IMG/VR virus record: IMGVR_UViG_3300037471_001733
Coordinates: 22,201 to 86,200 of that record
Source of the DNA: a virus
Taxonomy: Duplodnaviria; Heunggongvirae; Uroviricota; Caudoviricetes
Length of the DNA stretch: 64,000 nucleotides
Strand: one strand, 5' to 3'
The notes under the pieces are model-generated. The model did not search any database. It was not told the origin of the DNA and saw nothing but the letters and a program-made list of their open reading frames with translations. Shown here piece after piece: positions 9,034-57,249 of this stretch (position 1 is the first letter of the stretch; every line of letters starts with the position of its first letter). The position numbers and the translations under genes are program-made.

Positions 9034-9051
9034 TTGGATTCCTACAGACGT

Positions 9052-9074
9052 AAAAAAGCCCGCTCGGGGCGGGC
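9052..9074 (-). other. stable stem-loop (GCCCGC-UCGGG-GCGGGC + U6) between protease and capsid genes, immediately upstream of capsid RBS
   Basis: seen in sequence; attenuator/processing hairpin candidate. Confidence 0.35.
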
Positions 9075-9099
9075 TTCGTTGGGCTTGGGGACGGTTTGG

Positions 9100-10182: not shown

Positions 10183-10185
10183 GGG

Positions 10186-11481
10186 CTACCCTTGGTTGCG
10201 CGCTGAAAGCGCTTGACTGGATGCCGCCAAGTCGTTGTTGTCTTGCTGTGCCGGGGCCGCGCCAGCGGGGTTGCTTGGCATGCCTAATTCCGGATCAGAG
10301 GCGTCGCCCATGTTCACGGGCGCGCGGTAGATTTCGCCGCCCTCGTACGGGTTCTGCTCCTCGTAGGCGCGGATCTCGTTCGCGTTGAGCGCGCCCATCT
10401 GCCAGAGGCGGAAGTAGTACTCGGCGCGGTCACGCGCGGCGCCGCGCATCAAGGCATTGGCGTTGAACTTCGCGTAGATACCGTCGTCCAGGTCACGCTC
10501 GCTAAGCAGGTTGCAGTCGATGCTCTGCTCGATGCGTTCGTACCAAGGCGCCAGGCAGTGCACCACGTGCGCCAGGAACATCTGCTCCGCGCTGGCGTAA
10601 GTGGCCGTCTTGTCGCTGTAGCCGACCATCAGTGGCGCGCACCTAAAAATTCTGCACACCTCTTCGATCTGGTGACGTCTCGTTTCGAGATGCTGGCTAT
10701 CAACGCCCGTCATCGACGTCGGCACAAACTTGGCGCCGCGGTCAAGAATCATCGGGCGGAATCTCGCTTCGCCTGTCATGTTCTTCTCGACCCAGTTGCG
10801 CAGAGCAAGGAACTGGTCCGGAAGCAGCTTGTCGTCCACGCTGTAGATGCCAGTGGACTGCGCGCCATTGGCATGCATCAGCGCATGCGCCTCTTCGGTC
10901 GCCATCGCAAGGCCTATGGCCTCGCGAGCCAACTGCAACGGCTTTAGGCCGTCATAGCCGTTCCAACTCAGCCCTTTGACGTGCCAGATCGCCTCAGCCG
11001 GGAAGTCCTGCGACTGCCCAGTGATCTCGCTGCTTACGCGGTACACCGGCCGGCGGAACTGGTCCACATCCACGCACACCTCGTGCGGGAGAAACGGGAT
11101 CAACTCGCGGATCTTGCCGTTGACGACGTTCTTGAACGCCACGAAACGACCGGCCAAGCACACATGCGCGGCCAGCATCTCGCGGAACTCGAAGGACGTC
11201 TGCCAAGGGTTCGGCCGGCGGTACAGCACGCGATACAGCGGGTGGTCCTTCGCCGGATCGCTGCCGCCGTCGTCACGCTCCTTGTAGAGCTTCAAGGGCA
11301 CCTGCGCGATGCCCTCGGCAATCACGCGCACGCACGCCAGGACCGTCGTCACCTGCAGCGCGGTTTCCACCGTGACGTTCTGACCCGAACGCGACGCAGG
11401 AAACCAGCCGCTCCAGAAAGGCTCAGTGAACGCCTGCGCCCGGCGCTGCCGCGGCGCCATCATCTTCGACAGGAAACTCAC
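10186..11481 (-). CDS. portal protein, HK97 family
   Basis: 431 aa; Phage_portal pattern, located between large terminase and protease. Confidence 0.85.
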   Translation of the reverse strand: MSFLSKMMAPRQRRAQAFTEPFWSGWFPASRSGQNVTVETALQVTTVLACVRVIAEGIAQVPLKLYKERDDGGSDPAKDHPLYRVLYRRPNPWQTSFEFREMLAAHVCLAGRFVAFKNVVNGKIRELIPFLPHEVCVDVDQFRRPVYRVSSEITGQSQDFPAEAIWHVKGLSWNGYDGLKPLQLAREAIGLAMATEEAHALMHANGAQSTGIYSVDDKLLPDQFLALRNWVEKNMTGEARFRPMILDRGAKFVPTSMTGVDSQHLETRRHQIEEVCRIFRCAPLMVGYSDKTATYASAEQMFLAHVVHCLAPWYERIEQSIDCNLLSERDLDDGIYAKFNANALMRGAARDRAEYYFRLWQMGALNANEIRAYEEQNPYEGGEIYRAPVNMGDASDPELGMPSNPAGAAPAQQDNNDLAASSQALSARNQG

Positions 11482-11756
11482 TCGGCAGCCTTCCCGTCAC
11501 CGGCACGCGCGCGGATGCCCATCAGGCCCAGGCCCAGCGCCAGCAAGCCGCCGACGATGAAGCCAGCCGGCAGGGAGTACAGGCCGGTGCCATAGGCAAC
11601 AGCCCCGGCGCCGCCCAGCGCCAGCATGTCCGGCATCAGAAAGGCCAACAGTTCGCCGCCGGCCGCAATCAGGCCCAGCATGGCGCGGCCAAGGGTCAAC
11701 ATTCGGCGGGCCAGAAATGTCCTGGCACCGGCGATCTTCGTTCGCAGGTTTTTCAC
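11478..11756 (-). CDS. small membrane protein (hypothetical)
   Basis: 92 aa ORF with two hydrophobic helices between terminase and portal; overlaps both neighbours by 4 nt. Confidence 0.35.
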   Translation of the reverse strand: MKNLRTKIAGARTFLARRMLTLGRAMLGLIAAGGELLAFLMPDMLALGGAGAVAYGTGLYSLPAGFIVGGLLALGLGLMGIRARAGDGKAAE

Positions 11757-13513
11757 GGCGTCAGGACTTCCCAGAATGACTTTCCAGTGGACTCGGTGGT
11801 TCTGGACATCAAGCCCACGGCCATCACAGCCGCCACGATGAGGTCGATGCGGCCCGTGGCCTTTTCCTTGCTGAGCTTGCGGTTCTCGGCGTCATCCATC
11901 ACCGTCACCGCGTTGCTCGCACACCAGTTGAAAACTGGGTGGTCGTTGTGCGCCAACTCGTTGTTGAGCAGCATTCGCTCGAACTCTTCAACGGCTGGCG
12001 AAGCCTCTTTGTAACCTTGCCCGAACGCGACCATGGGCGGTAGGCTGATGCCTTCGTCGTCGGCAAGCGCCAGCAAGTCTTCGATGCGCCAGCGGTCGTA
12101 TGCGACGCCCTGGATCTCGAATGCCTCGGACAGCGCGGACAGCCGCTGCAGCACGTTGCGCTTGCTGATCGCGCGCCCCGGCGTGGTGTCCAAGTGCCCG
12201 GCAGCTTTCCACTGCACGTAGGGCACTCGATCGGTTTCGGCCTTCTTCTGCAGCCCCTCATCAGGCAGCCAGGCGAACGGCACTAGGTGCCACGGCTCGC
12301 CTTCCTCTTGCGGCTCAACCAGCAGCACCAGCCCCGTAAGGTCGGTGGTGGACGACAGGTCCAGCCCGGCCCAGGCTCGCCGGCCGCGCAGGTCTTGCCA
12401 GTTGAAGGTGCGAATCGCACTCTTCCAAACGTCGGCCGACAGCCACGGCGAATCGGCATCCGTCCACTGGCAGAAATTCAGCCGGCGGACGATCGCCTCC
12501 TTAGACGGCATGCCGCGCGCTTCGGTCACCTGCTCGCGCAGGTACTTCATGCCCGGCAGATCGGCGTCCTGCAGCGAAGGGTTGGCCTTCACCCAGCACG
12601 ACTCGTCCGAGAAAGGATCCTCGCCTTCATCTAGGGCGCACACGAAACTGAAGAACGCATCGTCCTCCAGCGTCCCCGCTGCGACCTTTGCGCCGTACTC
12701 GTGGTACGCCCAGCACGGCCCCCGTTTGTCGGAGCCGCTGTTGGTGATCATGAAGATCAGCGCCTGCCGCCGGCTCTTGGTGCCGGCGCGCATCATCTCC
12801 ACGACCGTGTTGGTCTTGTGCTCGTGCAGCTCGTCGATGAGCGCAATGTGCGGCCGCGGGCCGGACTGCCCATCGTCCGAGCTGATCGGGCGGAAGAAGC
12901 TGCCGGCCTGCAGGTAGGCCAGGTTCCACACCCGCTCGCCCGTGCCGCTCTTGGTCAGCCGCTTAGCGAGTTCCGGCGACTGGTCCACCATGGCCACCGC
13001 GTCGCGGAAGAGGATCATGGCCTGATCCTTCTTCGTCGCCGCAGCGTAGACCTCTGCGCGCGCCTCGCTGTCGGCGGTCAGGCCAAGAAGCCCAATGCCC
13101 GCCGAAAGGGGCGACTTCCCGGAGCCCTTGGCCGTCTCGACGTAGGCAACACGGAACCGCCGCCAGCCGTCAGAACCCTTCCAGCCGAACAGACTGCCGA
13201 TGACGAATTTCTGCCACGGCAGAAGCTCGAAGGGCTTTCCCTCAAAGTCGCCGCCGTTGAGCTTCAGGACGTTGCGGTAGTACCGCAGCGCCTTCAGGGC
13301 GGTCTCCAGGTCCCAATTCAGGCCGCGTGCCGGGCCTTTCTCCAGGTCGCGCAGGTGGCGCGCGCATGCCGCGCGCACATGCGGGCCGGCGATGCGTTTG
13401 CCGTCAACGACGGATTGGGCGTACTCGGTGACCGGATCGTCACCAGTCGGGACGTCAGCCGAAGAATTCCTGTAAGTGGTCTTCCTTTTGGTCGTCGTCG
13501 GCGTTTTGGACAT
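11753..13513 (-). CDS. terminase large subunit (Terminase_1 family)
   Basis: 586 aa; Walker A 'VETAKGSGKS', 'ALIDELHEH' and C-terminal nuclease region. Confidence 0.85.
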   Translation of the reverse strand: MSKTPTTTKRKTTYRNSSADVPTGDDPVTEYAQSVVDGKRIAGPHVRAACARHLRDLEKGPARGLNWDLETALKALRYYRNVLKLNGGDFEGKPFELLPWQKFVIGSLFGWKGSDGWRRFRVAYVETAKGSGKSPLSAGIGLLGLTADSEARAEVYAAATKKDQAMILFRDAVAMVDQSPELAKRLTKSGTGERVWNLAYLQAGSFFRPISSDDGQSGPRPHIALIDELHEHKTNTVVEMMRAGTKSRRQALIFMITNSGSDKRGPCWAYHEYGAKVAAGTLEDDAFFSFVCALDEGEDPFSDESCWVKANPSLQDADLPGMKYLREQVTEARGMPSKEAIVRRLNFCQWTDADSPWLSADVWKSAIRTFNWQDLRGRRAWAGLDLSSTTDLTGLVLLVEPQEEGEPWHLVPFAWLPDEGLQKKAETDRVPYVQWKAAGHLDTTPGRAISKRNVLQRLSALSEAFEIQGVAYDRWRIEDLLALADDEGISLPPMVAFGQGYKEASPAVEEFERMLLNNELAHNDHPVFNWCASNAVTVMDDAENRKLSKEKATGRIDLIVAAVMAVGLMSRTTESTGKSFWEVLTP

Positions 13514-13955
13514 GAACCTTGGACCTCGCGGCCGGCGTCAGCCCGAACTCGACCAGCCACGCCTTGAAGCGCCGGTCGGCATCGGCCAGCATGGCCACCG
13601 CCGGGTTCGCTTTGATGCTGCGGTCGCCCTGCGTGTTCGTTGTTTCGTAGGTAGGGCCGTCCTGGTTCACCAGTTCCTGATACCGCAGGATCTCGGCGTA
13701 CACGGCGCAGCCTCTCTCAAGGGCGTAGGCATCGGCCTCGGTTAGCACGCCCATCCGATCCAGCAGCACAGACATGCGGCCCCAGGCAACCTTGGCCTCG
13801 TCGGACAAGTGGCTGGGGCAACTAGGTATCTCGCGGCGTGGTTTGGGCTCGCTCTTGTTGAGCGCGCGCCTTCCCGGGTTGCCTGTAACTATTTTTAAGT
13901 GGCTCGGTTTTGGCCTGCGCCCCGCCATATCTCTATTCCTTGACTGGCCAGCCAT
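13455..13955 (-). CDS. terminase small subunit, P27 family
   Basis: 166 aa; 'KPSHLKIVTGNPGRRALN' N-terminus typical of P27-family TerS; precedes TerL. Confidence 0.7.
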   Translation of the reverse strand: MAGQSRNRDMAGRRPKPSHLKIVTGNPGRRALNKSEPKPRREIPSCPSHLSDEAKVAWGRMSVLLDRMGVLTEADAYALERGCAVYAEILRYQELVNQDGPTYETTNTQGDRSIKANPAVAMLADADRRFKAWLVEFGLTPAARSKVHVQNADDDQKEDHLQEFFG

Positions 13956-14214
13956 CCACCCCGATCACCGGCCGAACTCGATGACCTAGATCTCGCGCCG
14001 TTTTGTCACGGTGACAGGGGGTACATAGCCCCTGAGCCTGGCCCGGGTCTTCGTGGAAGTCCTTGCCGCCGTTGACTAGCGCGACTTTGTGGTCCAACTG
14101 AGTTGCGGCAGCAAGTCGGCCATGGCGTGAGCACTCAGCACAAAGCGGGTTCAGCCGCAAGTAGTAGTCGCGGAACCGCTGCAGCGGGCGGCCACGCAAG
14201 CGATCAGTGGCCAT
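13933..14214 (-). CDS. HNH endonuclease (terminase-associated)
   Basis: 93 aa; CxxC ... DHKVAL..GG ... CxxCH HNH motif; directly upstream of TerS. Confidence 0.7.
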   Translation of the reverse strand: MATDRLRGRPLQRFRDYYLRLNPLCAECSRHGRLAAATQLDHKVALVNGGKDFHEDPGQAQGLCTPCHRDKTARDLGHRVRPVIGVDGWPVKE

Positions 14215-14272
14215 GCGCGCCTCGGGAAAGAAAAGGCCCGCCTGCCGGAGAGCCGGGGCGAGCAGAAACCTG

Positions 14273-14359
14273 TGGCGCGGACGGCTGGGCTCGAACCAGC
14301 GACCTGCAGCGCTGGTCTTTGCGAACCCGCTGCTTCTCTACCGGCTGAGATACGCCCGC
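14273..14359 (-). tRNA. tRNA-like gene, 87 nt with encoded CCA; canonical acceptor, D and T arms but aberrant extended anticodon arm (loop CGCAAA) - possible pseudo/unusual phage tRNA
   Basis: minus strand GCGGGCG-TA-TCTCAGCCGGTAGAGA-...-GCTGGTTCGAGCCCAGC-CGTCCGC-G-CCA; no 5bp/7nt anticodon arm can be folded. Confidence 0.4.
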
Positions 14360-14370
14360 GTCGGAAACGA

Positions 14371-14394
14371 AAAAGCCCGCGCGAGGCGGGCTTT
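14371..14394. terminator. bidirectional terminator-like hairpin (GCCCGC-GCGAG-GCGGGC flanked by A-run and T-run)
   Basis: seen in sequence between tRNA-like gene and Zn-ribbon/HNH gene. Confidence 0.5.
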
Positions 14395-14552
14395 GAGAAA
14401 TCTGCAGAGACACCTATCCCACGGACCTGTCGGAATTGGGATAGATTCACCGGGAGGCCGTAAGCGTAGCCGGCGTGGGCCAATTGTACGGCTTGTTGTC
14501 TTGCACACGCAACAGGGGCTGTCAAGGGCTCGCGAGCGACGCCCACATATCT

Positions 14553-15449
14553 CTATAACCCCAACTGCAGTTGACCAAGAGACTTGCTTCCCTTGGACCG
14601 GTTGCACCCAAAGCACTCGCACTGCGTGTTGCTATAGCTGTGTGGACCTCCATCGCGCAGGCTGACAACGTGACCAAGCTCCGGTGCGCCCTCAATCCTC
14701 TTGCCCATCTTCGACCTCGGCGTCTTAATGCCGCAAATCTTGCAGCGCCAGCCGTCGCGCTCAAAGACAGACAGCTTGTCCACCTTCTCGTACTCGCAGC
14801 CGAACTTTCTGGCGCGACGCCGATGCGTGGTGCCGCTAGTGGCTCTGTAACGGTAGCTCAGCTGACAGGCTATCGAGCAGTACTTTTGGCGCAGGTCGCC
14901 ATAGTCCGGCGTGAACGCAACTTCGCAGAAGCCGCACTTGCGAGGCGACCGGTCGCGGCTACGCTCTTGCTTCTTCCGATTGTAAACCTTGCTCCTGCAT
15001 TTGCTGCTACAGAAGTTCGCATCCGGCATCTTGGCCATGAAGTCGCGCCCGCAGGACGGGCTGGCGCAGACCCTGGCATAGCGCAGCTTATTCTGGCCGC
15101 GCTCCTTTTTCTCCGGCGCTGGAACGCACTCATAGCAGAACTTGCGCGGCTTGCCGTTCTTAAATAGTGGCTTTGGGTGGCGGCAGCCGTTTTCATTCCG
15201 GGTCCTGCACTCGTCGGAGCAATGACTGCGGCGCAGCTTCGTCGGCTTGAAGGGCATTCCACAGTAGGCGCATAACCGCGGCGGTTTCGGAGGCACGGGC
15301 GGATTCTTCCGTGGTCGTCCAGCGCCAGGACGGCGGCCGCCAGAGTTTGGACGCGGGCCACCGCGCTTTGAACGCGACGCCTCGACCAGTGCGCATAGCG
15401 CGCCTTTGCAGCCGCCAACAGACAGCCGCCTATACTCGCCTTCAACCAT
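14553..15449 (-). CDS. multi-zinc-ribbon protein with C-terminal HNH endonuclease domain
   Basis: 298 aa; at least 6 CxxC pairs, C-terminal 'ELGHVVSLRDGG...CECFGCNRSKGSK' HNH motif; AGGAAG RBS. Confidence 0.65.
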   Translation of the reverse strand: MVEGEYRRLSVGGCKGALCALVEASRSKRGGPRPNSGGRRPGAGRPRKNPPVPPKPPRLCAYCGMPFKPTKLRRSHCSDECRTRNENGCRHPKPLFKNGKPRKFCYECVPAPEKKERGQNKLRYARVCASPSCGRDFMAKMPDANFCSSKCRSKVYNRKKQERSRDRSPRKCGFCEVAFTPDYGDLRQKYCSIACQLSYRYRATSGTTHRRRARKFGCEYEKVDKLSVFERDGWRCKICGIKTPRSKMGKRIEGAPELGHVVSLRDGGPHSYSNTQCECFGCNRSKGSKSLGQLQLGL

Positions 15450-40302: not shown

Positions 40303-40880
40303 GCCTTGGCTCCTTCAGCGGGCTCGTCTTTTCGGCGTTGGTCAGCTTCGCCAGCCAAGTGCAGGCCATGAATCGCTAGCGCCTCACGAATCCTGGCGAT
40401 GGATGTGGGTCCAATGCCGCCGAACCGGCGCCGAGTCAGGTCCGCAGGAGTGAGCCTCGTCAGGGCGCCAATCGTTCGCACGCCATTGCGGTCCAAGGAG
40501 CCGGTCACCCTGGGCGTGAGGCCATCAAGCGCGGCGGGCGAGAAGGCCAGGAAGCCGACGTCATCAGGGTGCGGGCCCTGCTCGTGGCGCGGCTCGATGA
40601 GCGGCGGACGGGCCGGAGACGGCGCAGGAGCGGGCTCGGGCGCCGGCACAGGGATCGTGAAGCTCACCGGCTTCAGGCGCACCTTCAGCATCTCGTCGGC
40701 CACCATGTACGACACGATGGCAACCTGCTCCGGGCTGATGTCGCCGCCGTAGGCGCCCAGCAGGGACTGCATGGCACCCTCAGCGAGCTTGTCGCGCAGC
40801 TTGGTCAATTGCTTGCTCATGCTCCAGCCCTCCGCGCAGTCGGCCGGTAACTCTCCCAAGGAAACGGCACCCAGCGACAC
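40299..40880 (-). CDS. protein with C-terminal RNA-polymerase alpha-subunit CTD-like helix-hairpin-helix domain
   Basis: 193 aa; 'IGALTRLTPADLTRRRFGGIGPTSIARIREALAIHGLHL' matches alpha-CTD HhH pattern ([27 protein letters not shown]). Confidence 0.5.
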   Translation of the reverse strand: MSLGAVSLGELPADCAEGWSMSKQLTKLRDKLAEGAMQSLLGAYGGDISPEQVAIVSYMVADEMLKVRLKPVSFTIPVPAPEPAPAPSPARPPLIEPRHEQGPHPDDVGFLAFSPAALDGLTPRVTGSLDRNGVRTIGALTRLTPADLTRRRFGGIGPTSIARIREALAIHGLHLAGEADQRRKDEPAEGAKA

Positions 40881-41650
40881 GTCTCGGCCAGTCGATCAAA
40901 GGTGCGCTCACCAACGAACTGCTTGAAGCCCGCCGAGTTCTGGTTCGTGAGCAGGATGGTCGGCTTGACATCGCGGTAACGGCCGTCCAGCACGTCGAAG
41001 ACGATGTTCTGCTCGCTATCGGTGCCGTACTGCACGCCAACCTCGTCGATGACCAGCAGGTCCAGGTCCGTCAGGTAGCGCAGCACCTGCGTCTCGCTCT
41101 TCTCGCTGTCGCGCCGCCACGTCTCGCGGATCATGCGGATCAGGTCCATGCAGGTCACGTAGCGCACATCCGGCGAAAGCAGCGACTGCAGGACAGCGCC
41201 AGCGAGGTGGCTTTTGCCGGTGCCCGGCTTGCCGGCCAAGATCAGCCCGGAGCCCTTGCGCGAGTGCTCGGCAAAGTTCTCCGCGAAATCGCGCGTCACC
41301 GTCAGCGCATGGCGCTTCTCGTCGGTGTCGGCCACGAAGTTGTCGAACGTGCGGCCGATGAAGCGCGTCGGGATCATGGCGCTGGCCAGCATCCGGCTAT
41401 GGCGCTCTTCAGCGTCGCGGCGCTTTTGCTCAGCCTCGGCCGCGCGGTCCTCCTTGGCCTTGGCCTCTTCGCAGGCAGGACAGCGCGACCAGATGCGGCC
41501 GAAGATGTTGCGGCTCGTGTAGTCCCCGTGCTCGAGGCAAGAGGCTGCGCGCTCTTCCACCTGGCGCCTCACGGTGTCAGACAAGCGATCCATCGTCATC
41601 CACGCCTTCGCGGTAGTCCTTGGAGTCAAAACCAGCGTGCTTGCTGGCAC
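40817..41650 (-). CDS. DnaC/IstB-like AAA+ helicase loader
   Basis: 277 aa; Walker A 'GKPGTGKSHLAGAV', Walker B 'LLVIDEVG'. Confidence 0.7.
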   Translation of the reverse strand: MPASTLVLTPRTTAKAWMTMDRLSDTVRRQVEERAASCLEHGDYTSRNIFGRIWSRCPACEEAKAKEDRAAEAEQKRRDAEERHSRMLASAMIPTRFIGRTFDNFVADTDEKRHALTVTRDFAENFAEHSRKGSGLILAGKPGTGKSHLAGAVLQSLLSPDVRYVTCMDLIRMIRETWRRDSEKSETQVLRYLTDLDLLVIDEVGVQYGTDSEQNIVFDVLDGRYRDVKPTILLTNQNSAGFKQFVGERTFDRLAETCRWVPFPWESYRPTARRAGA

Positions 41651-42734
41651 CTTGGCTGCCGGCGACCGGCAGTTCGTCCATCCAGCGCCCCTGGTTCAAC
41701 CAAGTAGACGGATGCGGGATGTACTTGCCGCCATCGCGCGTCCAGTCAGTGGACTGCTTCTGCACCTTGATGGCATTCAGCATCGTGGCCAGCAGCTCAA
41801 CTCCAACTTGGCGCTTTTCAAAGGCGCGACGTGCCGCGTCAATGCCGACCTTCCTCGGGTATGCGCTCCAGAAATCCTCGAATCGACCGTCACCCCCAGG
41901 GGGGTTAGGGGGGTATTGGTTCCCTTGACGGTTAATTGACGGTTCTCCGTACCGTTTTTGGGACTGCTTCTCGGGAAAAACGGTACCGCTTCCACGGAAA
42001 AACGGTACTGCTTCACCATCCTCCGAAGCTGTACCGTTTTTGGCATAGCTTCCCAGACGTCGAGTCCGCTCCGCGATTGTTGCCGCGCGCAACTTGCTGG
42101 GAGTGCCTTCGTTCTTGCACAGCGGGTCCAAGTCGTACTGGCGGAACAGCCTCATTTCTGCCGCGCTGGCCTCCTCCGGCGTTTCAAACACCTCCAACAC
42201 CTCGCGCACCAGCAGGCGGCCGGCAGCGATCTGCTCGCGCGGCCACTTGCCGCTTCCACGATAGGCGTCTGCCTCGGGGTCTCCGCAAAAAGAGCGCTTA
42301 CCCAGGTAGAAATTGCCCGTCTCCGGGTCTGTCACTCGGTACGTGTAGTGCGTGGCTGACGCCGTAGGCAGGCCAAGCAGCCGATAGACCGGGATGGAGC
42401 CGGTCACACCAACGCGCTTGCCCGTGTCCATAAGCAGACCGGCGTCTTGCAAGTTCTTGATGTTCTTGATGAGAGTCTTGCGGTCGCAGCAGGTGTCCTG
42501 CTCCAGCCGCAGGATGCTCGGGTAACAGAACCCGAACTCGTCGGCGTAGTTGGCAAGGCAGACCATCAAGAACTTTTCGCTGGACTTCGGCATGTCCAGC
42601 TTGAAGGCGTAGGCGAGGGCTGGGATGCTCACAGCGGACCTCCCCGCACGTTCCATTGCCGCGCAGCCTCTACTGCAGCCTCCATGGCGTCTTCCAGCAC
42701 CACATCGGGCCCGTGCGACTCGCACTGCCAGCAC
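41577..42734 (-). CDS. phage replication initiation/replisome-organiser protein (N-terminal HTH_36 domain)
   Basis: 385 aa; 'FLMVCLANYADEFGFCYPSILRLEQDTCCDRKTLIKNIKNLQDAGLL' plus conserved C-terminal 'FEDFWSAYPRKVG...YIPHPSTWLNQGRW'. Confidence 0.65.
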   Translation of the reverse strand: MLAVRVARARCGAGRRHGGCSRGCAAMERAGRSAVSIPALAYAFKLDMPKSSEKFLMVCLANYADEFGFCYPSILRLEQDTCCDRKTLIKNIKNLQDAGLLMDTGKRVGVTGSIPVYRLLGLPTASATHYTYRVTDPETGNFYLGKRSFCGDPEADAYRGSGKWPREQIAAGRLLVREVLEVFETPEEASAAEMRLFRQYDLDPLCKNEGTPSKLRAATIAERTRRLGSYAKNGTASEDGEAVPFFRGSGTVFPEKQSQKRYGEPSINRQGNQYPPNPPGGDGRFEDFWSAYPRKVGIDAARRAFEKRQVGVELLATMLNAIKVQKQSTDWTRDGGKYIPHPSTWLNQGRWMDELPVAGSQGASKHAGFDSKDYREGVDDDGSLV

Positions 42735-50366: not shown

Positions 50367-50432
50367 CCATCTAACTGATCCATGCCCGGCGCGGGCTGCG
50401 CGCCAATTCCACAGAAGACGGAGACGGAAACC

Positions 50433-51374
50433 ATGACTACTGCACTCGCTCTCATGAGCAACCGCCTGGCGCAACGCTTCGGCATGGTCGAAGACGCCGA
50501 GTTGATTCCTGTGCTCAAGGCAACTGCGTTCAAAGGTCAGGTCAGTGACGCGCAGATGACGGCGCTGCTGATCGTTGCCGATCAATACGGCCTGAATCCG
50601 TGGACCAAGGAAATCTACGCTTTCCCAGACCCGCAGAACGGCATCGTGCCGGTGGTCAGCGTTGACGGCTGGAGCCGCATCATCAATGAGCACCCCGCCT
50701 TCGACGGCATTGAGTTCGAGTTGTCCGGCAAGGGCGATGACATGGAGATGCTGTGCCGCATCTTCCGCAAGGACCGCAGCCGCCCGATCGCAGTGACGGA
50801 GTACTTGACCGAGTGCAAGCGTGAAACGAAGCCTTGGAAGTCTCACCCGCGACGCATGCTGCGTCACAAGGCTGAGATCCAATGCGCCCGATTGGCCTTC
50901 GGCTTCGCTGGGCTCCACGACCACGACGAGGCGGAGCGCATTGTGGAAGCATCGTCTGGCGCACCGAAGAACATGGGGGCAGCCCAGGTGGTCGAGGCCG
51001 CCGCAGCTGCGGAAATGCCGCTCGGCCTGCTGGAGTCAGCCGAGAGCGCTGCGACCGAAGGGGTGGCCATCTATCAGGAATTCTGGAAGTCAACCGGCCC
51101 GGAAAACCGCAAGGCGCTGGCTGGCCACCATGCGCGGCTGAAGCAAGCAGCCATTGACGCCGACGCGGCGCGCACGGTGGAGATGCCCACGACCGGCGGC
51201 CAAGCCGAGCAGCCCACGCTGGACCTGGTGGCGCTGGAGCGGCGCATCGGCAGCTGCAACGACGCTCAGGTGTTGCTGCTCATTGCCGACGACGTGGCCA
51301 CGCTGCCCGAGGGTGAGGATCGCGCGCGGCTGGAGAAGTTGATCGCGGTGCGCGGCGAAGCGCTGGAGGGCTGA
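50433..51374 (+). CDS. Bet/Red-beta-RecT superfamily single-strand annealing protein
   Basis: 'LNPWTKEIYAFPDPQNGIVPVVSVDGWSRIINEHPAFDGIEFE' strongly resembles lambda Bet/RecT core. Confidence 0.7.
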   Translation: MTTALALMSNRLAQRFGMVEDAELIPVLKATAFKGQVSDAQMTALLIVADQYGLNPWTKEIYAFPDPQNGIVPVVSVDGWSRIINEHPAFDGIEFELSGKGDDMEMLCRIFRKDRSRPIAVTEYLTECKRETKPWKSHPRRMLRHKAEIQCARLAFGFAGLHDHDEAERIVEASSGAPKNMGAAQVVEAAAAAEMPLGLLESAESAATEGVAIYQEFWKSTGPENRKALAGHHARLKQAAIDADAARTVEMPTTGGQAEQPTLDLVALERRIGSCNDAQVLLLIADDVATLPEGEDRARLEKLIAVRGEALEG

Positions 51375-51377
51375 TCT

Positions 51378-52064
51378 ATGGCGCTAATCGTCCACACCGA
51401 CCCGCAGGGTAGTGAGGCGTGGCTCGCGGCACGCCGCGGCATCCCGACCGGCAGCCGTTTCAAGGATTGCCGTGACTACCTAAAGCCCACGGCAGCCGAG
51501 GTCAAGGCCGGCGCCACGCGCGGCAAGCCCTCCGCGAAGCTGCTGGGCTATGCGATGGATCTGGCGCGCGAGCGGGTCGGTGGCCATGTGCCTCCCGTGT
51601 TCCAGACCGCCGCGATGCGTACCGGCCATATCGAGGAGCCAAAAGCACGACTCGCCTACGAGGAAGAGACCGGCAACATCGTGATCGAAGCCGGCTTCAT
51701 CACGACGGAAGACCGGCGCTGGGGCGTGTCGGTGGACGGCCTCGTGAAGCCCAAGGGTGGAATCGAGGTGAAGACTATGGTGAGCAGCGCCACGCTGTTC
51801 AAGGCCGTGGTCGAAGGCGACATCAGTGAGTACATCGACCAGATCAACGGCGCGATCCTGCTGCTTGAACTGGACTGGCTCGACCTTGTGCTCTGGGCGC
51901 CCGACCTGGCGCACCTGGGGCGCGGGCTCACCATCCGCCGCATCTGGCGTGACGAAGCTGCGATCCGAGCACTGGAAGCGGACCTGCTGACCTTCGTGGC
52001 GCTGGTCAATGACTTCGAGGCCGCGCTGCGTGCGCCGGCAGTGGAAACCGAAGGAGCCTTCTGA
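51378..52064 (+). CDS. YqaJ-type viral recombinase exonuclease (PD-(D/E)XK)
   Basis: 'QGSEAWLAARRGIPTGSRF' N-terminal YqaJ motif; paired with SSAP. Confidence 0.65.
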   Translation: MALIVHTDPQGSEAWLAARRGIPTGSRFKDCRDYLKPTAAEVKAGATRGKPSAKLLGYAMDLARERVGGHVPPVFQTAAMRTGHIEEPKARLAYEEETGNIVIEAGFITTEDRRWGVSVDGLVKPKGGIEVKTMVSSATLFKAVVEGDISEYIDQINGAILLLELDWLDLVLWAPDLAHLGRGLTIRRIWRDEAAIRALEADLLTFVALVNDFEAALRAPAVETEGAF

Positions 52065-52321: not shown

Positions 52322-52484
52322 ACACTTTTCGGGCGATCCCAGCGTGATGAGCTTTTTCCAATCTTCGTCTCCTCCCTAGCGGGCTTGCTCATCACGCGCA
52401 GCTTCGGCTGCCGCCTTTCTTCTTTCTGCGGCGAACAACAGCACGACGGGGTCTGCTTCCTCCCTGTACTCCTCCTTACCCGTC

Positions 52485-53357
52485 GTGCGGCGGCGTGTGC
52501 TGCCAGCCGCTCTTTCTTTTGATGGCAACTGCGAAAACCCCGGGGCTACGAGCGCGGCCAGCAGAGCCGCGCCGCCAGCCCCACCAACCAACTACAGCGA
52601 GATTCACGTGATCCACTACCACGGACTGCCGATTACGCCGGACACGGCAGCAGAGCGTGCTATTGCTGGCGGCCATGCGTTTGTGTCATTCGCGCACCCT
52701 GAGCAATTGGGTCTCGCTGCGGCTGTGGCGCAATCATTCGCCATTGATAACGGCGCGTTCTCGGCTTGGCGGGCCGGCCGTCCGGTAACGGACTGGACGC
52801 CTTTCTACGAATGGGCTGCCGCAGCCAAGCGCATCCCTGGCTGCGACTTCGCCGTCATACCTGATGTCATTGACGGCACTGAGGCTGACAACGATGCGTT
52901 GCTTGCCGAGTGGCCGCTGCCCAACTGGTTCGGGGCGCCCGTGTGGCACATGAACGAGGGCCTGGATCGCCTGGAGCGCTTGGCCACCGTCTTCCCTCGC
53001 GTGTGCATCGGCAGTTCTGGCGAGTTCGCAATGGTGGGAACGCCGACGTGGTGGGGCCAGATCGCCCGCGCCATGCGTGTTGTGTGCGACGACGATGGGC
53101 GCCCGATGTGCAGGCTCCATGGCCTGCGCATGCTGGACCCGGAAGTGTTCAAGCATCTCCCGTTTTCCAGCGCAGACAGCACGAATATCGGCCGCAACAT
53201 TGGCATCGATCAAGCTTGGCGCGGCACCTATACGCCGCCGACGAAAGAGGCGCGGGCAGCTGTCATGCGCTCGCGCATTGAGGCTGAGAACGCGCCAGCA
53301 CGCTGGGCGTTTCGCATCCCCGAGTTCCATCCTGAAGACCAAGGGAGCCTGCTGTGA
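52485..53357 (+). CDS. candidate DpdA-like DNA (7-deazaguanine) transglycosylase (TGT-like); start uncertain
   Basis: directly upstream of queC-queE-queD with 4-nt overlap; 'IDNGAFS' resembles TGT catalytic 'DSGGFQ' motif. Confidence 0.45.
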   Translation: MRRRVLPAALSFDGNCENPGATSAASRAAPPAPPTNYSEIHVIHYHGLPITPDTAAERAIAGGHAFVSFAHPEQLGLAAAVAQSFAIDNGAFSAWRAGRPVTDWTPFYEWAAAAKRIPGCDFAVIPDVIDGTEADNDALLAEWPLPNWFGAPVWHMNEGLDRLERLATVFPRVCIGSSGEFAMVGTPTWWGQIARAMRVVCDDDGRPMCRLHGLRMLDPEVFKHLPFSSADSTNIGRNIGIDQAWRGTYTPPTKEARAAVMRSRIEAENAPARWAFRIPEFHPEDQGSLL

Positions 53358-53890
53358 GCAAAGTTATCCTGTTGTCCGGCGGCCTGGATTCCGCCCTGTG
53401 CTTGGCTCGCTACGGCGCCGACTTGGCCATTGGCTTCAATTACGGACAGCCGCATGCGATTGAGTTGGCCCATGCCGAGCGCATTGCAAGGCAGCACGGC
53501 GTGCCTTTCGAGATCCATGCGCTGCCGACCATGCCGCGCGTCAACGACGTCGTCTTCGCCGGCCGCAATGCGGTGATGCTGACGGCAGCCGCAGCCATTG
53601 CTCAGGCGCGCGGCCACGACGCGGTGTTGATCGGCTGCAACTTCTCGGATGCCACCCGGTTTCCTGACTGCCGGCCGGAATTCATTCGCAACATCAGCAA
53701 GGCGCTTGAGTCGGCATATGGCGTAAGCGTCTGCGCGCCGCTGCTGTTGTCCACCAAGACGCAGATAGTGGCAGAGGCCAAGCAACGCGGCATCACGGAC
53801 ACCTGGACCTGTTACGCGCCCACAACTGATGGTCAGCAGTGCGGCCAGTGCTACTCCTGCCAGGGCATCGCCTCAGCGAGCGCGTCATGA
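53354..53890 (+). CDS. queC: 7-cyano-7-deazaguanine synthase QueC (short form)
   Basis: PP-loop 'LLSGGLDS', C-terminal Cys cluster CGQCYSCQ. Confidence 0.75.
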   Translation: MSKVILLSGGLDSALCLARYGADLAIGFNYGQPHAIELAHAERIARQHGVPFEIHALPTMPRVNDVVFAGRNAVMLTAAAAIAQARGHDAVLIGCNFSDATRFPDCRPEFIRNISKALESAYGVSVCAPLLLSTKTQIVAEAKQRGITDTWTCYAPTTDGQQCGQCYSCQGIASASAS

Positions 53891-54507
53891 CCTATACCGT
53901 CAAGGAGATCTTCTACACGCTGCAGGGCGAGGGCTTGCACGCCGGGCGCCCAGCGGTGTTCTGCCGCTTCGCCGGGTGCAACCTGTGGAGCGGGCGTGAG
54001 CAGGACAGGAGCAAGGCGGCATGCCGTTTCTGCGACACCGAGTTCCGCGGCGGCACGAAGTACCGCACGCCCGAGGATTTGGCTGATGCCATTGAGCAGG
54101 CGTGGGCGCCGCAGGTGGTGGCCCGACGCATGGTGGTGCTCACCGGCGGCGAGCCGGCGCTGCAGGTGGATCAGGCGCTTGTGCACTTGCTGCAGGCCCG
54201 CGGGTTCTATGTCGCCATCGAGACGAACGGCACCAAGGAACTGCCGCAGGGTCTGGATTGGGTGTGCGTGAGCCCCAAGGGCGATGAGCCGCTGCGTGTG
54301 GTGCATGGCAACGAGCTGAAGCTGGTGTACCCGCAGATGCTGGCACTGCCGCAGCGGTTTGAGGAGTTGGCCTTCGACCACTTCCTTCTGCAGCCCATGG
54401 ACGGCCCGTTCCTTGAGGCCAACACCCAGGCTGCCATCGAGTTCTGCATGGGCAACCCAAAGTGGCGGCTCTCGGTGCAGACCCACAAGTACATCGGAGT
54501 GCGCTGA
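53887..54507 (+). CDS. queE: 7-carboxy-7-deazaguanine synthase QueE (radical SAM)
   Basis: 'IFYTLQGEGLHAGRPAVFCRFAGCNLW' QueE N-terminal signature. Confidence 0.8.
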   Translation: MTYTVKEIFYTLQGEGLHAGRPAVFCRFAGCNLWSGREQDRSKAACRFCDTEFRGGTKYRTPEDLADAIEQAWAPQVVARRMVVLTGGEPALQVDQALVHLLQARGFYVAIETNGTKELPQGLDWVCVSPKGDEPLRVVHGNELKLVYPQMLALPQRFEELAFDHFLLQPMDGPFLEANTQAAIEFCMGNPKWRLSVQTHKYIGVR

Positions 54508-54509
54508 CC

Positions 54510-54965
54510 ATGCCCACCACCATCATGAAACGCCTGGAGTTCGACGCCGGGCACCGCATCCCCAACCACGCCAGCAAGTGCCGCAACCTGCACGGCCACA
54601 GGTACGCGCTGGAAATCACGCTGGTGGGCGAGCCCATCGACGCCCCCGGCACCAGCAGCCACGGGATGCTGGAGGACTTCAGCGACGTGAAGCGCTTGGC
54701 GATGGAGCACCTCGTGGAGCCCTGGGACCACGCTTTCCTGGTGTACGAGGGCGACACGCAGGTGCTGGCGCTGCTGGCCGCGCTGCCCGGCCACAAGACC
54801 GTGGTGCTGCCGCGCGTGCCCACGGCCGAGAACCTCGTGGCGCTGGCCTTTGAAACGCTGGCGCCGATCTACACCGACCGCTTCGGCAACGGGCTGCGCC
54901 TGGAGCGCGTGCGCCTGTGGGAAACGCCGACGTGCTGGGCGGACTTCAGTTCCACAACCAACTGA
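54510..54965 (+). CDS. queD: 6-carboxy-5,6,7,8-tetrahydropterin synthase QueD
   Basis: 'RLEFDAGHRIPNHASKCRNLHGHRYALEI' QueD/PTPS signature. Confidence 0.75.
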   Translation: MPTTIMKRLEFDAGHRIPNHASKCRNLHGHRYALEITLVGEPIDAPGTSSHGMLEDFSDVKRLAMEHLVEPWDHAFLVYEGDTQVLALLAALPGHKTVVLPRVPTAENLVALAFETLAPIYTDRFGNGLRLERVRLWETPTCWADFSSTTN

Positions 54966-54973
54966 CGAGCACC

Positions 54974-56038
54974 ATGTTCAAAAACTTGACCTTGTTGCGC
55001 ATCAGCAGCGACTGGCTGCCCGATGCCATCGCTGCCGAGGACCAGCTGGCGCGCGAGCCCTTCACCGCCTGCGGTGCGACACAACCCGCGAGTGCTGGCT
55101 GGGTGCCGCCGCGAGGTGTGCCGCATGCGCCGCTGCTGGAGGTCATCGGCGGCCATTGGATTCTGTCGTTGATGTCAGAGCGCCGGCTGCTGCCCGGATC
55201 TGTCATCAAGGACCGCGTTGCCGAGATGACTGCCGAGTTCGAGAAGGCCAACGGCTACAAGGTCGGCAAGCGCCAGCGCAAGGAACTGGTGGCGCAGGCC
55301 GAGCAGGAGTTGCTGCCGAAGGCATTCACGAAACGCTCGCTGACCAAGGTGTGGCTCGACCCCCGCGCCCGCCTCCTAGCGGTCGACACCGGCAGCGCCA
55401 GCGCGGCCGAGTCTGTGGTTTCGATGCTGGTCAAGAGCCTGGACGGCTTTGGTGTGCAGCCTGTGACGACTTGGCTGGCGCCGGCCGGCGCGATGGCGGC
55501 TTGGATCAGCGAAGGCTGCGCGCCAAGCGGCTTCAGCCTGGACCGCGAGTGCGAGCTCAAGTCCACGGACGAGATGAAGAGCGTCGTCCGCTACGCCCGC
55601 CACTCGCTGGACAACGATGACGTGCGCCGCCACATCGCATCCGGCAAGCGCCCGACGCGCCTGGCGCTGTCCTGGGGCGACCGCGTGGCGTTCACCTTGA
55701 CCGATGGGCTTGTGCTCAAGCGCATCGAGTTTCTTGACGTCGCCATGGAAGGCCGCTCCGAAGTGGACGCGGCAGAGGCCTTTGACGCTGATGCTGCTAT
55801 CGCCTGCGGCGAGCTCAGCCGCCTGATACCGGATCTGCTGGCGGCGCTTGGTAACGAGGCTGAGCAGTCGCGCATCCACGAGGAAGAATCCAGCCCCAAG
55901 GCTGCGCTACAGGACCCCGCAGTGCCGAATTTGGACCACATCAGTACATCAGCGCTCTACTTGGCAGCGCAGGTGGAGCAGCAGATGGCTCCGATACGCG
56001 CGGCCCTGTCCGAGACTGCAGGAGCCGCCAAGGCATGA
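54974..56038 (+). CDS. rdgC: recombination-associated protein RdgC
   Basis: 'MFKNLTLLRIS...GWVPP...VIKDRVAEM...' collinear with RdgC. Confidence 0.75.
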   Translation: MFKNLTLLRISSDWLPDAIAAEDQLAREPFTACGATQPASAGWVPPRGVPHAPLLEVIGGHWILSLMSERRLLPGSVIKDRVAEMTAEFEKANGYKVGKRQRKELVAQAEQELLPKAFTKRSLTKVWLDPRARLLAVDTGSASAAESVVSMLVKSLDGFGVQPVTTWLAPAGAMAAWISEGCAPSGFSLDRECELKSTDEMKSVVRYARHSLDNDDVRRHIASGKRPTRLALSWGDRVAFTLTDGLVLKRIEFLDVAMEGRSEVDAAEAFDADAAIACGELSRLIPDLLAALGNEAEQSRIHEEESSPKAALQDPAVPNLDHISTSALYLAAQVEQQMAPIRAALSETAGAAKA

Positions 56039-56616
56039 GCCTGCACATCGTCCCGATCACGCTTGAGCAGGCCAAGAGGTTCGTGCGCCGGCACCACCGC
56101 CACAACAAGCCGCCCACGGGCTGGAAGTTCGGCGTGGGCCTGTGCCACAGCGCCGGGCCGCTAGTGGGAGTGGCGACCGCTGGGCGCCCGGTGTCGCGCG
56201 AGATCCAGGAGCGCGAGCCGCTGACGCTGGAGGTCAACCGCACGTGCACGGACGGCACGCGCAACGCCAACTCGATGCTCTACGGCGCGATCTGGCGCGC
56301 GGCCAAGGCCCTGGGCTACACGCGCGCCATCACCTACATCCAAGGCAACGAGACGGGCGCCTCGCTCAAGGCTGCGGGCTGGGTGAAGGTGCGCGACCTA
56401 GATGCGCGCGGCTCCTGGAAGGAGTCGAGCAAGAAGTTGGCGCACCTGCGCGACGACGAGGGCACGGGCGGCGTGGCGCGGCAGCTGTGGGAAATCCGCG
56501 CTGCGACCGCCGGCCCAGTGGTGCTGCCCGACCTGGGCGCCGACGACGATCTGACAGACGACACAGAAGACCCCACGGGCGACTTGTTCGCCGAAGCTGA
56601 AGGAGAGCCCGCATGA
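56035..56616 (+). CDS. hypothetical protein
   Basis: 193 aa. Confidence 0.4.
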   Translation: MSLHIVPITLEQAKRFVRRHHRHNKPPTGWKFGVGLCHSAGPLVGVATAGRPVSREIQEREPLTLEVNRTCTDGTRNANSMLYGAIWRAAKALGYTRAITYIQGNETGASLKAAGWVKVRDLDARGSWKESSKKLAHLRDDEGTGGVARQLWEIRAATAGPVVLPDLGADDDLTDDTEDPTGDLFAEAEGEPA

Positions 56617-56774
56617 CCATCGTCGCCCGCCAACCCATCCGCCAAGCCTTCAAGGCCGCCCTCAAGATCGACCCGCACAAGACGCTGGAGCAGTGCATCG
56701 AGGACGCCATCCAGACCGTCGCCAAGGAGCGACGCCTGCCGGCCGAGTTGGTGCGGCAGGCCATTGAGGACTGA
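56613..56774 (+). CDS. small hypothetical protein
   Basis: 53 aa. Confidence 0.3.
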   Translation: MTIVARQPIRQAFKAALKIDPHKTLEQCIEDAIQTVAKERRLPAELVRQAIED

Positions 56775-56778
56775 CACC

Positions 56779-57249
56779 ATGAGCACGAATCCCATTGCCT
56801 CCATCACCGAGTGGATGGATGGAGCAGGCCACGGACCCGAGAGCCTGCCGCTGTACTTCGCTCTGACGCTGGAAGAAGGCGGGCAGGAGATGCTGGACCC
56901 GGTGTCGCTGCTGCACCCCAACGACAGGGTTGAGCCCACCGAAAGGCTTGGACTGATGCTGAAGAACCTGAGCCGAATGATCCGCAACGGCGATGTGCGC
57001 TTGGATGTGGCCAACCGCGCGGAGCTACTGGATGCAGCGCTGGACACCGCCTGGGTTGCCCTGTGCCTGGCGCGCACGCTCACCGGCGACAGGCTGGGAG
57101 AGGCTTGGGCGGAACTGCATCGCAGCAACGTGACGGACAAGCAGCAGGACGGCGTGTTCGTCAAGGACGCATCAGGCAAGGTCTGCAAGCCGAATGGCTA
57201 CAGAGGCCCGAACTTCGCGCAGTTCCTATTAGCGGCAAAGACTAGTTGA
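56779..57249 (+). CDS. possible MazG-like NTP pyrophosphohydrolase
   Basis: 156 aa, GAGGA RBS; all-helical with acidic motifs; assignment tentative. Confidence 0.35.
   Translation: MSTNPIASITEWMDGAGHGPESLPLYFALTLEEGGQEMLDPVSLLHPNDRVEPTERLGLMLKNLSRMIRNGDVRLDVANRAELLDAALDTAWVALCLARTLTGDRLGEAWAELHRSNVTDKQQDGVFVKDASGKVCKPNGYRGPNFAQFLLAAKTS

Follow-up and report, generated by a model that had tools for sequence, protein, structure and literature searches.

The placement of 7-deazaguanine bases in phage DNA is an established anti-restriction strategy, and a gene cassette for it is in itself no surprise. One described arrangement unites DpdA with preQ0 synthesis genes in phage clusters that have no amidotransferase (group 2 of Hutinet et al. 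2019), for example in Escherichia phage CAjan, Mycobacterium phage Rosebush and Pseudomonas phage iggy. In CAjan, deletion of dpdA abolishes dPreQ0 (PMC7544227). A different branch, the 'singleton' DpdA clade, occurs in gamma-proteobacterial phages that carry no precursor-synthesis genes, among them Pantoea phage MED16 and P22-like or lambdoid phages of Salmonella, E. coli and Klebsiella (BTP1, SPN3UB, SfI); Hutinet et al. (2019) left the functional divergence of this clade open. DNA of MED16, the only chemically analysed phage of the clade checked here, contains dADG by LC-MS/MS, with about 0.13% of G modified and no visible restriction protection (PMC8306585). In bacteria, the restriction-modification of dpd islands (DpdA/DpdB/DpdC, DpdD-K) relies on DpdA together with preQ0 and ADG (PMC10164549). 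Type IV CBASS contains a TGT-like and minimal QueC-like pair, Cap10/Cap9, that deazaguanylates the CD-NTase.

Layout and setting of the cassette

The window, that is, the whole 64,000-nt stretch of viral DNA analysed, contains four tightly coupled genes on the plus strand, dpdA-like, queC, queE and queD, spanning 52608-54965. The first, ORF1 (52608..53357, 249 aa), belongs to a mostly 'singleton' phage DpdA clade. It overlaps the minimal queC (53354..53890, 178 aa, with a GGGAG ribosome-binding site) by the 4 nt GTGA, and queC overlaps queE (53887..54507, 206 aa, true start ATG 53887) by the 4 nt ATGA. The queD gene (54510..54965, 151 aa, true start ATG 54510) follows directly. Family matches, all far beyond chance, and overlaps bear out the original prediction of a four-gene 7-deazaguanine cassette, including the 4-nt overlap between its first two genes.

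The sole sizeable gap within the operon, 286 non-coding nt at 52322..52607 on the plus strand, lies 5' of dpdA and is a possible regulatory region. A hairpin with a T-run can be read in it at 52398-52420; terminator-like sites, this one among them, are about as frequent as chance would give. No Rfam family, the preQ1 riboswitch included, was found in a search of the whole window and of the gap upstream of dpdA, and a promoter scan of 48.5-57.5 kb returned no sigma-70-like site.

Nine nucleotides past queD, in the same operon, lies an rdgC-like recombination-associated gene (54974..56038, plus strand; PF04381, E 1.9e-97), which is context and stands outside the pathway. It is translationally coupled, again through an ATGA overlap, to a gene for an XF1762-family or Mom-like GNAT protein (56035..56616, plus strand). 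That protein scores 184 bits against NF045478 (cutoff 50) and E 6.5e-37 against phrog_1384, 'Mom-like DNA modification protein', while its score against Pfam Mom, 23.2 bits, falls below the cutoff of 27.1; it possibly represents a second DNA-modification function of the operon. The genes flanking the cassette encode RecT, a YqaJ exonuclease, an 85-aa ORF, RdgC, the XF1762/Mom-like protein and a MazG-like protein, and the location is where a tailed phage or prophage has its early and recombination genes. Because an HK97-type capsid protein, a portal protein and TerL are encoded within the window, the DNA to be modified should be the phage genome. A nucleotide search of phage genomes gave short patches at 66-78% identity and no close relative. 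No tRNA genes occur within the window.

Like the group 2 clusters, the locus joins DpdA with QueC, QueE and QueD, and homology of its DpdA-like protein to CAjan DpdA is detectable. As in group 2, no ArcS, Gat-QueC or QueF was seen in the cassette or its neighbours, from which dPreQ0 or dADG is predicted. Unlike group 2, the cassette has neither FolE nor YhhQ, and its four overlapping genes form a module within an early operon of the recombination type, instead of a cluster of 12 genes in the genome of a lytic member of the Queuovirinae. It differs from CAjan also in its DpdA clade (249 aa here, 306 aa in CAjan) and in its QueC, shorter by about 60 residues than the 240-aa protein of CAjan.

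The DpdA-like protein and its clade

The original prediction gave the first gene 290 aa. All homologues begin instead with MIHYHG, which places the start at GTG 52608, and the gene predicted on an identical Logan contig starts there too; a start at 52485, which makes the listed reading frame 41 codons too long at its N-terminus, was dropped. ORF1 matches PHROG 887 (E 1.2e-68) and is 39% identical to the MED16 DpdA, gp38 (E 1e-52). Identity to CAjan DpdA is 25%, BLASTP between the two gives E 2e-9, and the profile-profile check proposed for this gene came out positive, the family profile A3 aligning with CAjan DpdA at an hhalign probability of 98.9% (E 2.2e-17, 177 columns). The TGT-like motif IDNGAFS noticed earlier is present as residues 46-52 and aligns with LDSGAFS of CAjan DpdA. 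Residues D47, H171, D190 and S191 are invariant among 52 diverse family members and align with LDSGAFS, LHAFG and CDSS of the CAjan protein; judged by colinearity, these ORF1 residues probably correspond to Cap10 D73, H226 and D248. ORF1 has a TGT-type (beta/alpha)8 barrel and is homologous to an experimentally validated DpdA, and its closest solved structure is Cap10.

The proposed relationship to TGT holds by profile-profile and structure comparison and is visible only there, unlike with ordinary HMM searches. No Pfam or NCBIfam model matches ORF1; Pfam TGT (PF01702) gives no match at E<=1 in any of the 52 diverse family members. Searches of PDB sequences with phmmer and with the A3 HMM found no TGT or DpdA, only spurious GCN4 coiled coils, and hhalign of the family profile against the single E. 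coli Tgt sequence gives a probability of 0.5%. No PADLOC DpdA model matches either ORF1 or MED16 DpdA. Alignment A3 contains no conserved Cys cluster of the zinc-binding CxCxxC...H kind. ORF1 lacks both the zinc subdomain shared by TGT and bacterial DpdA and the tRNA-binding elements; neither mark of a tRNA-guanine transglycosylase, the PF01702 match or the zinc subdomain, is present.

These features bear on an auxiliary metabolic or tRNA role, in which the cassette would supply the host with more queuosine precursor, or tRNA would be the substrate of the TGT-like protein, so as to tune translation during infection. Such a role has been suggested for known phages with preQ0 genes and no DpdA (PMC6884629); the founding members of the TGT superfamily, moreover, act on tRNA. 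Yet ORF1 groups with DNA-acting DpdA, is without zinc and tRNA-binding elements, and is encoded among DNA recombination and DNA-modification genes, so that we regard this role as highly improbable. The evidence supports ORF1 as a DNA-guanine transglycosylase of the TGT superfamily, for which insertion into DNA is predicted from YhhQ-like or QueC/QueE/QueD neighbours.

Relatives of ORF1 mostly stand alone or are followed by a YhhQ-like importer, and a downstream biosynthetic module is rare. A Vut_1/YhhQ-type precursor transporter gene lies directly downstream in 54 of 79 IMG/VR relatives. None of 31 genome loci has QueC or QueE within 10 kb (a QueD-like gene alone occurs in 3), and QueC is absent from the 6-kb flanks of all 79 IMG/VR loci that a fresh search with the DpdA profile retrieved. 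Across the clade, then, the downstream slot may hold a YhhQ-type importer, a QueD-like gene, QueC or, as here, QueC-QueE-QueD. The DpdA proteins of the 'singleton' phages are of one family with ORF1 (39-60% identity along the full length), and their genes have a similar early-region position in temperate-type phages; the locus differs from theirs in carrying QueC-QueE-QueD in the slot downstream of dpdA.

Many relatives of ORF1 are prophage genes in bacterial chromosomes, as would suit self-marking of the kind found in the bacterial dpd islands, with lysogen DNA marked by the modifying arm of a defence system. The cassette genes, however, include no homologue of or PADLOC match for DpdB (the ATPase partner), DpdC or DpdD-K, and none of the neighbouring genes was seen to encode a restriction component. 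ORF1 also differs from bacterial DpdA in having no zinc site, at 13% identity, and phage DpdA works without DpdB (PMC6884629). We give self-marking very little credence.

Precursor synthesis and the minimal QueC

QueE and QueD are canonical by their sequences. QueE scores 316.7 bits against TIGR04508 (cutoff 240) and, with a C-x14-C-xx-C cluster motif at residue 31, is a Cx14CxxC-type radical-SAM 7-carboxy-7-deazaguanine synthase. QueD, a 6-carboxytetrahydropterin synthase, matches PF01242 (E 1.2e-29) and falls just below the cutoff of TIGR03367 (87.8 against 89.25); its signature CRNLHGH, of the form CxxxHGH, is at residue 24. QueD is distinguished by CxxxHGH from DpdL, a proposed CDG decarboxylase with LxxxHRH (PMC10516641), and assignment of the queD product to DpdL was ruled out on this ground.

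The reported absence of folE was upheld: E. coli FolE found no tblastn match at E<=10 anywhere in the window, and no GTP cyclohydrolase was matched by Pfam among the 30 window ORFs scanned. The precursor would therefore come from the host enzyme. Since CAjan requires its own folE for detectable modification (PMC7544227), a cassette without folE may yield low-level modification only.

QueC is clearly a member of PF06508 (E 1.8e-38; 132.6 bits, domain cutoff 22), although it stays below the cutoffs of TIGR00364 (118.9 against 150.3) and NF008317 (66.9 against 378), and so outside the equivalog. It contains SGGLDS at residue 8, YGQPHAIE at residue 30, GRN, FPDC, K135 and a zinc motif, C153-x9-C163-xx-C166-xx-C169, with one residue more than C(x)8C. 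SGGLDS, YGQPHAIE and the Cys4 motif, which represent the P-loop, YxQxHxxE and zinc site, are invariant in the short-QueC family, and almost every residue of the QueC signature defined by experiment (PMC13329287) is kept. The canonical combination of VPxRN, YPDC, pocket Leu and about 220 aa is absent. A 23-residue segment equivalent to E. coli residues 62-84, including the conserved pocket Leu (E. coli L75), is missing; VFAGRN replaces VPxRN, with RN kept and Pro changed to Ala; and FPDC replaces YPDC, its Phe being invariant across the family. E. coli QueC Y131F is only partly active (PMC13329287). From its motifs and its linkage to queE and queD, QueC is predicted to be an ATP-dependent enzyme acting on 7-carboxy-7-deazaguanine.

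The short length of QueC had been singled out as notable. The 178 residues stand, but they are no oddity of this window, since the protein belongs to a conserved family of about 175 aa that neighbours DpdA. The pairing is itself conserved: a DpdA-like gene lies within about 1.3 kb in 19 of 19 short-QueC viral loci, and metagenome loci repeat the pattern. This minimal family was not found in a 2026 survey of PF06508.

The end product of the cassette may be dADG rather than dPreQ0, a reading considered because the minimal QueC has the architecture of the amide-forming Cap9 and because MED16 DNA carries dADG. The pathway would be the same, with the minimal QueC stopping after conversion of CDG to its amide, ADG, which the DpdA-like protein would insert to give dADG DNA. 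The truncated architecture of short QueC is shared with Cap9, whose product is an amide rather than a nitrile (10.1101/2025.04.06.647259; PMC13329287), and the missing segment and invariant FPDC fit the same picture. MED16, with its 39% identical DpdA, contains dADG, and so does phage 7-11, another DpdA-only phage, which may belong to the same clade or to another (PMC8306585, PMC6884629). Many phages have short QueC without QueD or QueE, and their hosts normally already make preQ0, a pattern more sensible if the product differs from preQ0. A QueC homologue has also been proposed as an ADG synthase in Campylobacter phages (PMC10516641). On the other side, the remaining catalytic-signature residues of short QueC are all intact, and MED16 and 7-11 carry dADG without a phage QueC, so the enzyme is not needed there. 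We hold an ADG-forming QueC to be a genuine if somewhat unlikely possibility.

The resemblance to Cap9 also admits a reading in which the TGT-like protein and minimal QueC are a phage counterpart of type IV CBASS Cap10/Cap9 and would attach CDG to an amine of a protein (deazaguanylation) or interfere with that defence, rather than placing a free base in DNA. QueC and Cap9 (PDB 9nto_B) align over their whole length, with catalytic motifs retained in a truncated Rossmann architecture (PMC13329287). The TGT-like and QueC-like genes adjoin in both systems, both pairs would use CDG, and the elements missing here, the TGT-like zinc subdomain and the QueC insert, are those missing in the CBASS counterparts; QueE and QueD would supply CDG, the substrate of Cap9. 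The locus nevertheless lacks a nearby CD-NTase, effector or Cap11, and thus the operon of type IV CBASS. RecT, an exonuclease, RdgC and the Mom-like protein surround it, QueE and QueD share its early phage operon, and its presumed target is DNA and not a protein N-terminus. Of the PADLOC models, only that of Cap9 matches QueC (73.7 bits) and none matches ORF1. Sequence similarity is greater to DpdA and canonical QueC: ORF1 is clearly homologous to the DNA-modifying CAjan and MED16 enzymes, and QueC scores 132.6 bits with Pfam QueC against 73.7 with Cap9, and 58 against 37 bits in the PDB search. The YhhQ-type importer often adjoining DpdA of this clade, furthermore, points to a free-base substrate. 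A CBASS-like function is therefore very unlikely.

A broader and rather doubtful version treats the DpdA-like/minimal QueC pair as a phage-side sister of Cap10/Cap9, the minimal QueC being an amide-forming ligase and not a nitrile synthase. ADG would be made, or CDG coupled to another amine or a protein, and the DpdA-like protein would place this amide-linked 7-deazaguanine into DNA or else target or counteract defence proteins that carry a deazaguanyl group. If true, a widespread phage module would carry out chemistry other than the textbook preQ0 route, and would point to an evolutionary origin of CBASS accessory genes.

Predicted pathway and its meaning

We consider it probable that the cassette is a phage-encoded module that puts a 7-deazaguanine base into the phage's own DNA after replication. 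Host GTP cyclohydrolase I would provide dihydroneopterin triphosphate, which QueD would convert to 6-carboxytetrahydropterin and the Cx14CxxC radical-SAM enzyme QueE to CDG. The minimal QueC would adenylate and amidate CDG to ADG and, if it performs the second ATP-dependent step, dehydrate ADG to preQ0. The DpdA-family enzyme would then exchange guanines in duplex phage DNA for the 7-deazaguanine base by a TGT-type mechanism, with Asp47 and Asp86 as putative base-binding residues and His171 and Asp190 as the putative catalytic pair. The outcome would be restriction-resistant DNA containing dPreQ0 or dADG, either of which is the likely product. What the four genes encode, their coupling in an operon, the DpdA fold and homology of ORF1 and its conserved pairing with the minimal QueC are shown here, whereas we infer the chemistry of the cassette, which base results, how much of it DNA contains, and the restriction protection. 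Counted against this pathway are the lack in ORF1 of a Pfam, NCBIfam or PADLOC match and of a zinc subdomain, a QueC that falls below the NCBIfam cutoff, with a missing segment and the Phe substitution, the need of CAjan for its own folE, and the low modification of MED16 DNA with no visible protection.

What sets this copy apart is an unusually small QueC together with a little-studied branch of DpdA. The minimal QueC family is undescribed, and whether its product is preQ0 or ADG could explain dADG in phages of the DpdA clade to which ORF1 belongs. In practice, such genes are a sign that the DNA may withstand restriction enzymes and impair nanopore basecalling. The structural resemblance of both proteins to Cap10/Cap9 suggests that DNA-modification genes of phages are linked with an accessory module of bacterial immunity. 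The window and its relatives provide evidence from genomic context that the 'singleton' DpdA clade still works with 7-deazaguanine bases.

A compact DpdA at the head of the cassette

The first gene of the cassette, ORF1 (52608-53357, + strand), was originally given 290 aa and a start at GTG 52485. That start was wrong: the product has 249 aa, and MIHYHG, from GTG 52608, is the start in every homologue and in the gene call of an identical Logan contig. The 4-nt overlap with queC (GTGA) stands.

ORF1 has no match in Pfam, NCBIfam or PADLOC. None of 52 diverse family members matches TGT at E<=1, and the family HMM finds no match among PDB sequences. ORF1 does match PHROG 887 (E 1e-68). With gp38 of Pantoea phage MED16 it shares 39% identity along its entire length (E 1e-52); gp38 has been reported to be a DpdA and to match TGT in HHpred, and about 0.13% of G in MED16 DNA is present as dADG (PMC8306585). 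In HHpred-type comparisons, hhalign of the family against E. coli Tgt alone returned nothing, while its profile matched DpdA of phage CAjan (probability 98.9%, E 2.2e-17, 177 columns). CAjan loses its dPreQ0 when dpdA is deleted (PMC7544227). Across the ORF1 family no residues are invariant but D47, H171, D190 and S191, which in the alignment with CAjan DpdA fall on LDSGAFS, LHAFG and CDSS; D47, H171 and D190 would match, in order along the chain, the Asp that binds the nucleobase and the His and Asp of the catalytic pair in Cap10. The family has no conserved Cys cluster and hence, like Cap10, does without the zinc subdomain of TGT and bacterial DpdA. Judged by its homology, ORF1 is a DpdA to which standard tools are blind, and the CAjan and MED16 matches uphold the TGT-like, DpdA reading of the original prediction.

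Phage clusters of group 2, with DpdA and preQ0 genes and no amidotransferase (PMC6884629), are the known class to which the cassette belongs. It differs from them in having a DpdA of the clade known so far mainly as "singletons", whose function was flagged as open in 2019 (PMC6884629), in missing FolE, and in the presence of a minimal QueC.

The short QueC family and the proposed pathway

The three predicted synthesis genes all have the expected family matches. QueC matches PF06508 (E 2e-38) but scores below the cutoff of the NCBIfam equivalog (118.9 against 150.3). QueE matches TIGR04508 (queE_Cx14CxxC; 316.7 bits, cutoff 240) and contains the C-x14-C-xx-C motif. QueD matches PF01242 (E 1e-29), and its CRNLHGH fits the CxxxHGH signature of QueD rather than the LxxxHRH of the proposed decarboxylase DpdL (PMC10516641).

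The shortness of QueC, pointed out as notable beforehand, is real but not particular to the window. Homologues are many in a large protein database, the best 120 being mostly 171-180 aa, and on sequence grounds the short form is that of a family rather than an accident. An alignment of 40 homologues shows as invariant LLSGGxDS, Y-x-Q-x-H-x-x-E, R71 and N72 (inside DVVFAGRN), F103-P-D105-C106-R107, K135, C153-Y154 and C163-xx-C166-xx-C169. The canonical signature, determined experimentally by Libby et al., comprises SGGxDS, YxQxHxxE, VPxRN, YPDC, L75, K165 and a zinc motif with Y189 (PMC13329287). Compared with it, short QueC keeps the RN of VPxRN but not the Pro, has Phe for the Tyr of YPDC, and is missing the region of E. 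coli QueC residues 62-84, which holds the pocket Leu. The Y131F form of E. coli QueC has only partial activity (PMC13329287). Cap9 of type IV CBASS has the same truncated architecture; the window QueC aligns end to end with it (PDB 9nto_B) and scores 73.7 bits with the PADLOC QueC/Cap9 model. The product of Cap9 from CDG is the amide, not the nitrile (10.1101/2025.04.06.647259). No description of the minimal QueC family was found in the literature searched, including a 2026 survey of PF06508.

We consider it likely that the cassette acts as a whole pathway. H2NTP would come from host FolE, QueD and QueE would make CDG, and minimal QueC would take CDG to ADG, perhaps further to preQ0. DpdA would then swap guanines in replicated phage DNA for that base, and the modified DNA would be protected against restriction. 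As predicted, no folE was detected, either by tblastn at E<=10 or among 30 window ORFs scanned with Pfam. Modification may be low in level; detectable modification in CAjan needed the phage's own folE (PMC7544227), and in MED16 the modified share of G is only about 0.13%.

Which base is installed is uncertain, with preQ0 slightly ahead. Installation of ADG instead is possible, if somewhat doubtful; it is suggested by the Cap9-like architecture and invariant Phe of short QueC and by the dADG of MED16 and of a second DpdA-only phage, 7-11, and it would give phages an evident reason to carry QueC alone in hosts that normally produce preQ0 themselves. A role in tRNA or metabolism seems very improbable for the cassette beside DNA modification.

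Operon and phage setting

All four cassette genes lie in the same direction on the + strand and are translationally coupled: queC (53354-53890) has a GGGAG ribosome-binding site, queE (53887-54507) has its true start at ATG 53887 in an ATGA overlap with queC, and queD (54510-54965) starts at ATG 54510. The operon continues on the same strand with rdgC (54974-56038), an XF1762/Mom-like GNAT gene (56035-56616; ATGA overlap with rdgC; NF045478, 184 bits; phrog_1384, "Mom-like DNA modification protein"), a 53-codon ORF, and a MazG-like nucleotide pyrophosphohydrolase gene (56764-57249; phrog_671, E 3e-14). Coupling of the Mom-like gene to rdgC in this operon makes a second DNA modification possible, and the phage may thus carry an adenine-directed one. 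The Mom-like gene was not seen beside DpdA-like genes at the other loci examined. The MazG-like gene is two genes 3' of the cassette; in Cellulophaga phage phiST, too, a MazG/dUTPase-like gene belongs to the deazaguanine cluster (PMC10516641).

Upstream are RecT (50382-51374), a YqaJ-type exonuclease (51378-52064), an 85-codon ORF and, directly 5' of dpdA, a 286-nt non-coding gap (52322-52607) with no Rfam match. It contains a GC hairpin at 52398-52411 with a T-rich run after it, which might act as terminator or attenuator between recombination and modification genes, though sites of this kind are no more frequent here than expected by chance.

On the - strand lie a structural and packaging block (7786-15449) with HK97-type capsid (7786-9033), portal (10186-11481), TerL (11753-13513) and an HNH protein (14553-15449), and a replication module with a DnaC/IstB-like ATPase (40817-41650) and an HTH_36 protein (41577-42734); the window encodes replication proteins of the DnaC-like and O-like kinds. 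These genes mark the setting as a tailed phage or prophage, with about 64% GC; no tRNA genes were found in the window. Prophage defence of the Dpd type is most unlikely, since neither DpdB nor DpdC was found among the cassette genes and no restriction genes among their neighbours.

Gene neighbourhoods and precursor supply

The ORF1 family is very large: the database gave >6,000 matches, none of them named, and relatives in Pseudomonas and Achromobacter are 76-80% identical. At none of 31 genome loci is QueC or QueE within 10 kb of the DpdA-like gene; three have only a QueD-like neighbour, and at four a Vut_1/YhhQ-like gene adjoins, as it does separately in Acinetobacter phage AB3P2. There the neighbour (L002:8001-9193) is annotated merely "hypothetical protein". 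Approached from the DpdA side, 54 of the 79 closest IMG/VR loci (L121-L199) have as next gene downstream, within about 50-300 nt, a transporter gene of Vut_1/YhhQ type (e.g. L129:1637-2868); three have a QueD-like gene there, and none has QueC within its 6-kb flanks. YhhQ is a preQ0/preQ1 importer, also present in the CAjan cluster (PMC7544227). In environmental phages, then, most of the "singleton" clade pairs DpdA with an importer.

Structural resemblance to Cap9 and Cap10 raises the alternative of protein deazaguanylation or anti-CBASS activity, which we regard as very unlikely given this importer linkage, the absence of a CD-NTase nearby and the clear homology of ORF1 to DNA-acting DpdA.

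Some QueD-like genes directly following DpdA-like genes (L014:1284-1745, L186:5054-5473, L189:6672-7112, L034:6989-7486) encode SxxxHGH, which is neither the catalytic CxxxHGH nor the LxxxHRH of DpdL; their products could be T-fold enzymes that act in some other way on a deazaguanine or pterin.

Seen from short QueC, a DpdA-like gene lies no more than about 1.3 kb away at all 19 closest IMG/VR loci, adjoining QueC or separated from it by queE alone, and a metagenome scan gave the same pairing. The partner belongs to the ORF1 family or to a 197-aa distant relative, found at L036:5411-6004 and at L038, L041, L045-L047, L050-L052, L203, L204 and L208. This 197-aa family has no Pfam match, aligns with the DpdA-like family by hhalign (57%, E 1e-4), shares GIDNGAF, PDV and DSADGT (SADxT) with it, and could represent one more DpdA subfamily, smaller still.

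Supply genes accompanying the DpdA-short QueC pair vary: QueE and QueD (the window, L034, L041, L205), QueE only (some loci), a YhhQ-like importer (L035-L037), FolE and QueE (L206), or none (some loci). FolE in viral loci occurs almost only with long, canonical phage QueC genes. Gene order varies too, with QueE-QueC-DpdA-FolE at L206:4405-6900 and DpdA-QueD-QueC-QueE at L205:3977-6200; the module of DpdA and synthesis genes has been reshuffled repeatedly. With supply genes so variable, DpdA is the constant element. Minimal QueC is its dedicated partner wherever a QueC occurs, and the "precursor supply" slot is variable, only rarely holding the full QueC-QueE-QueD set seen in the window.
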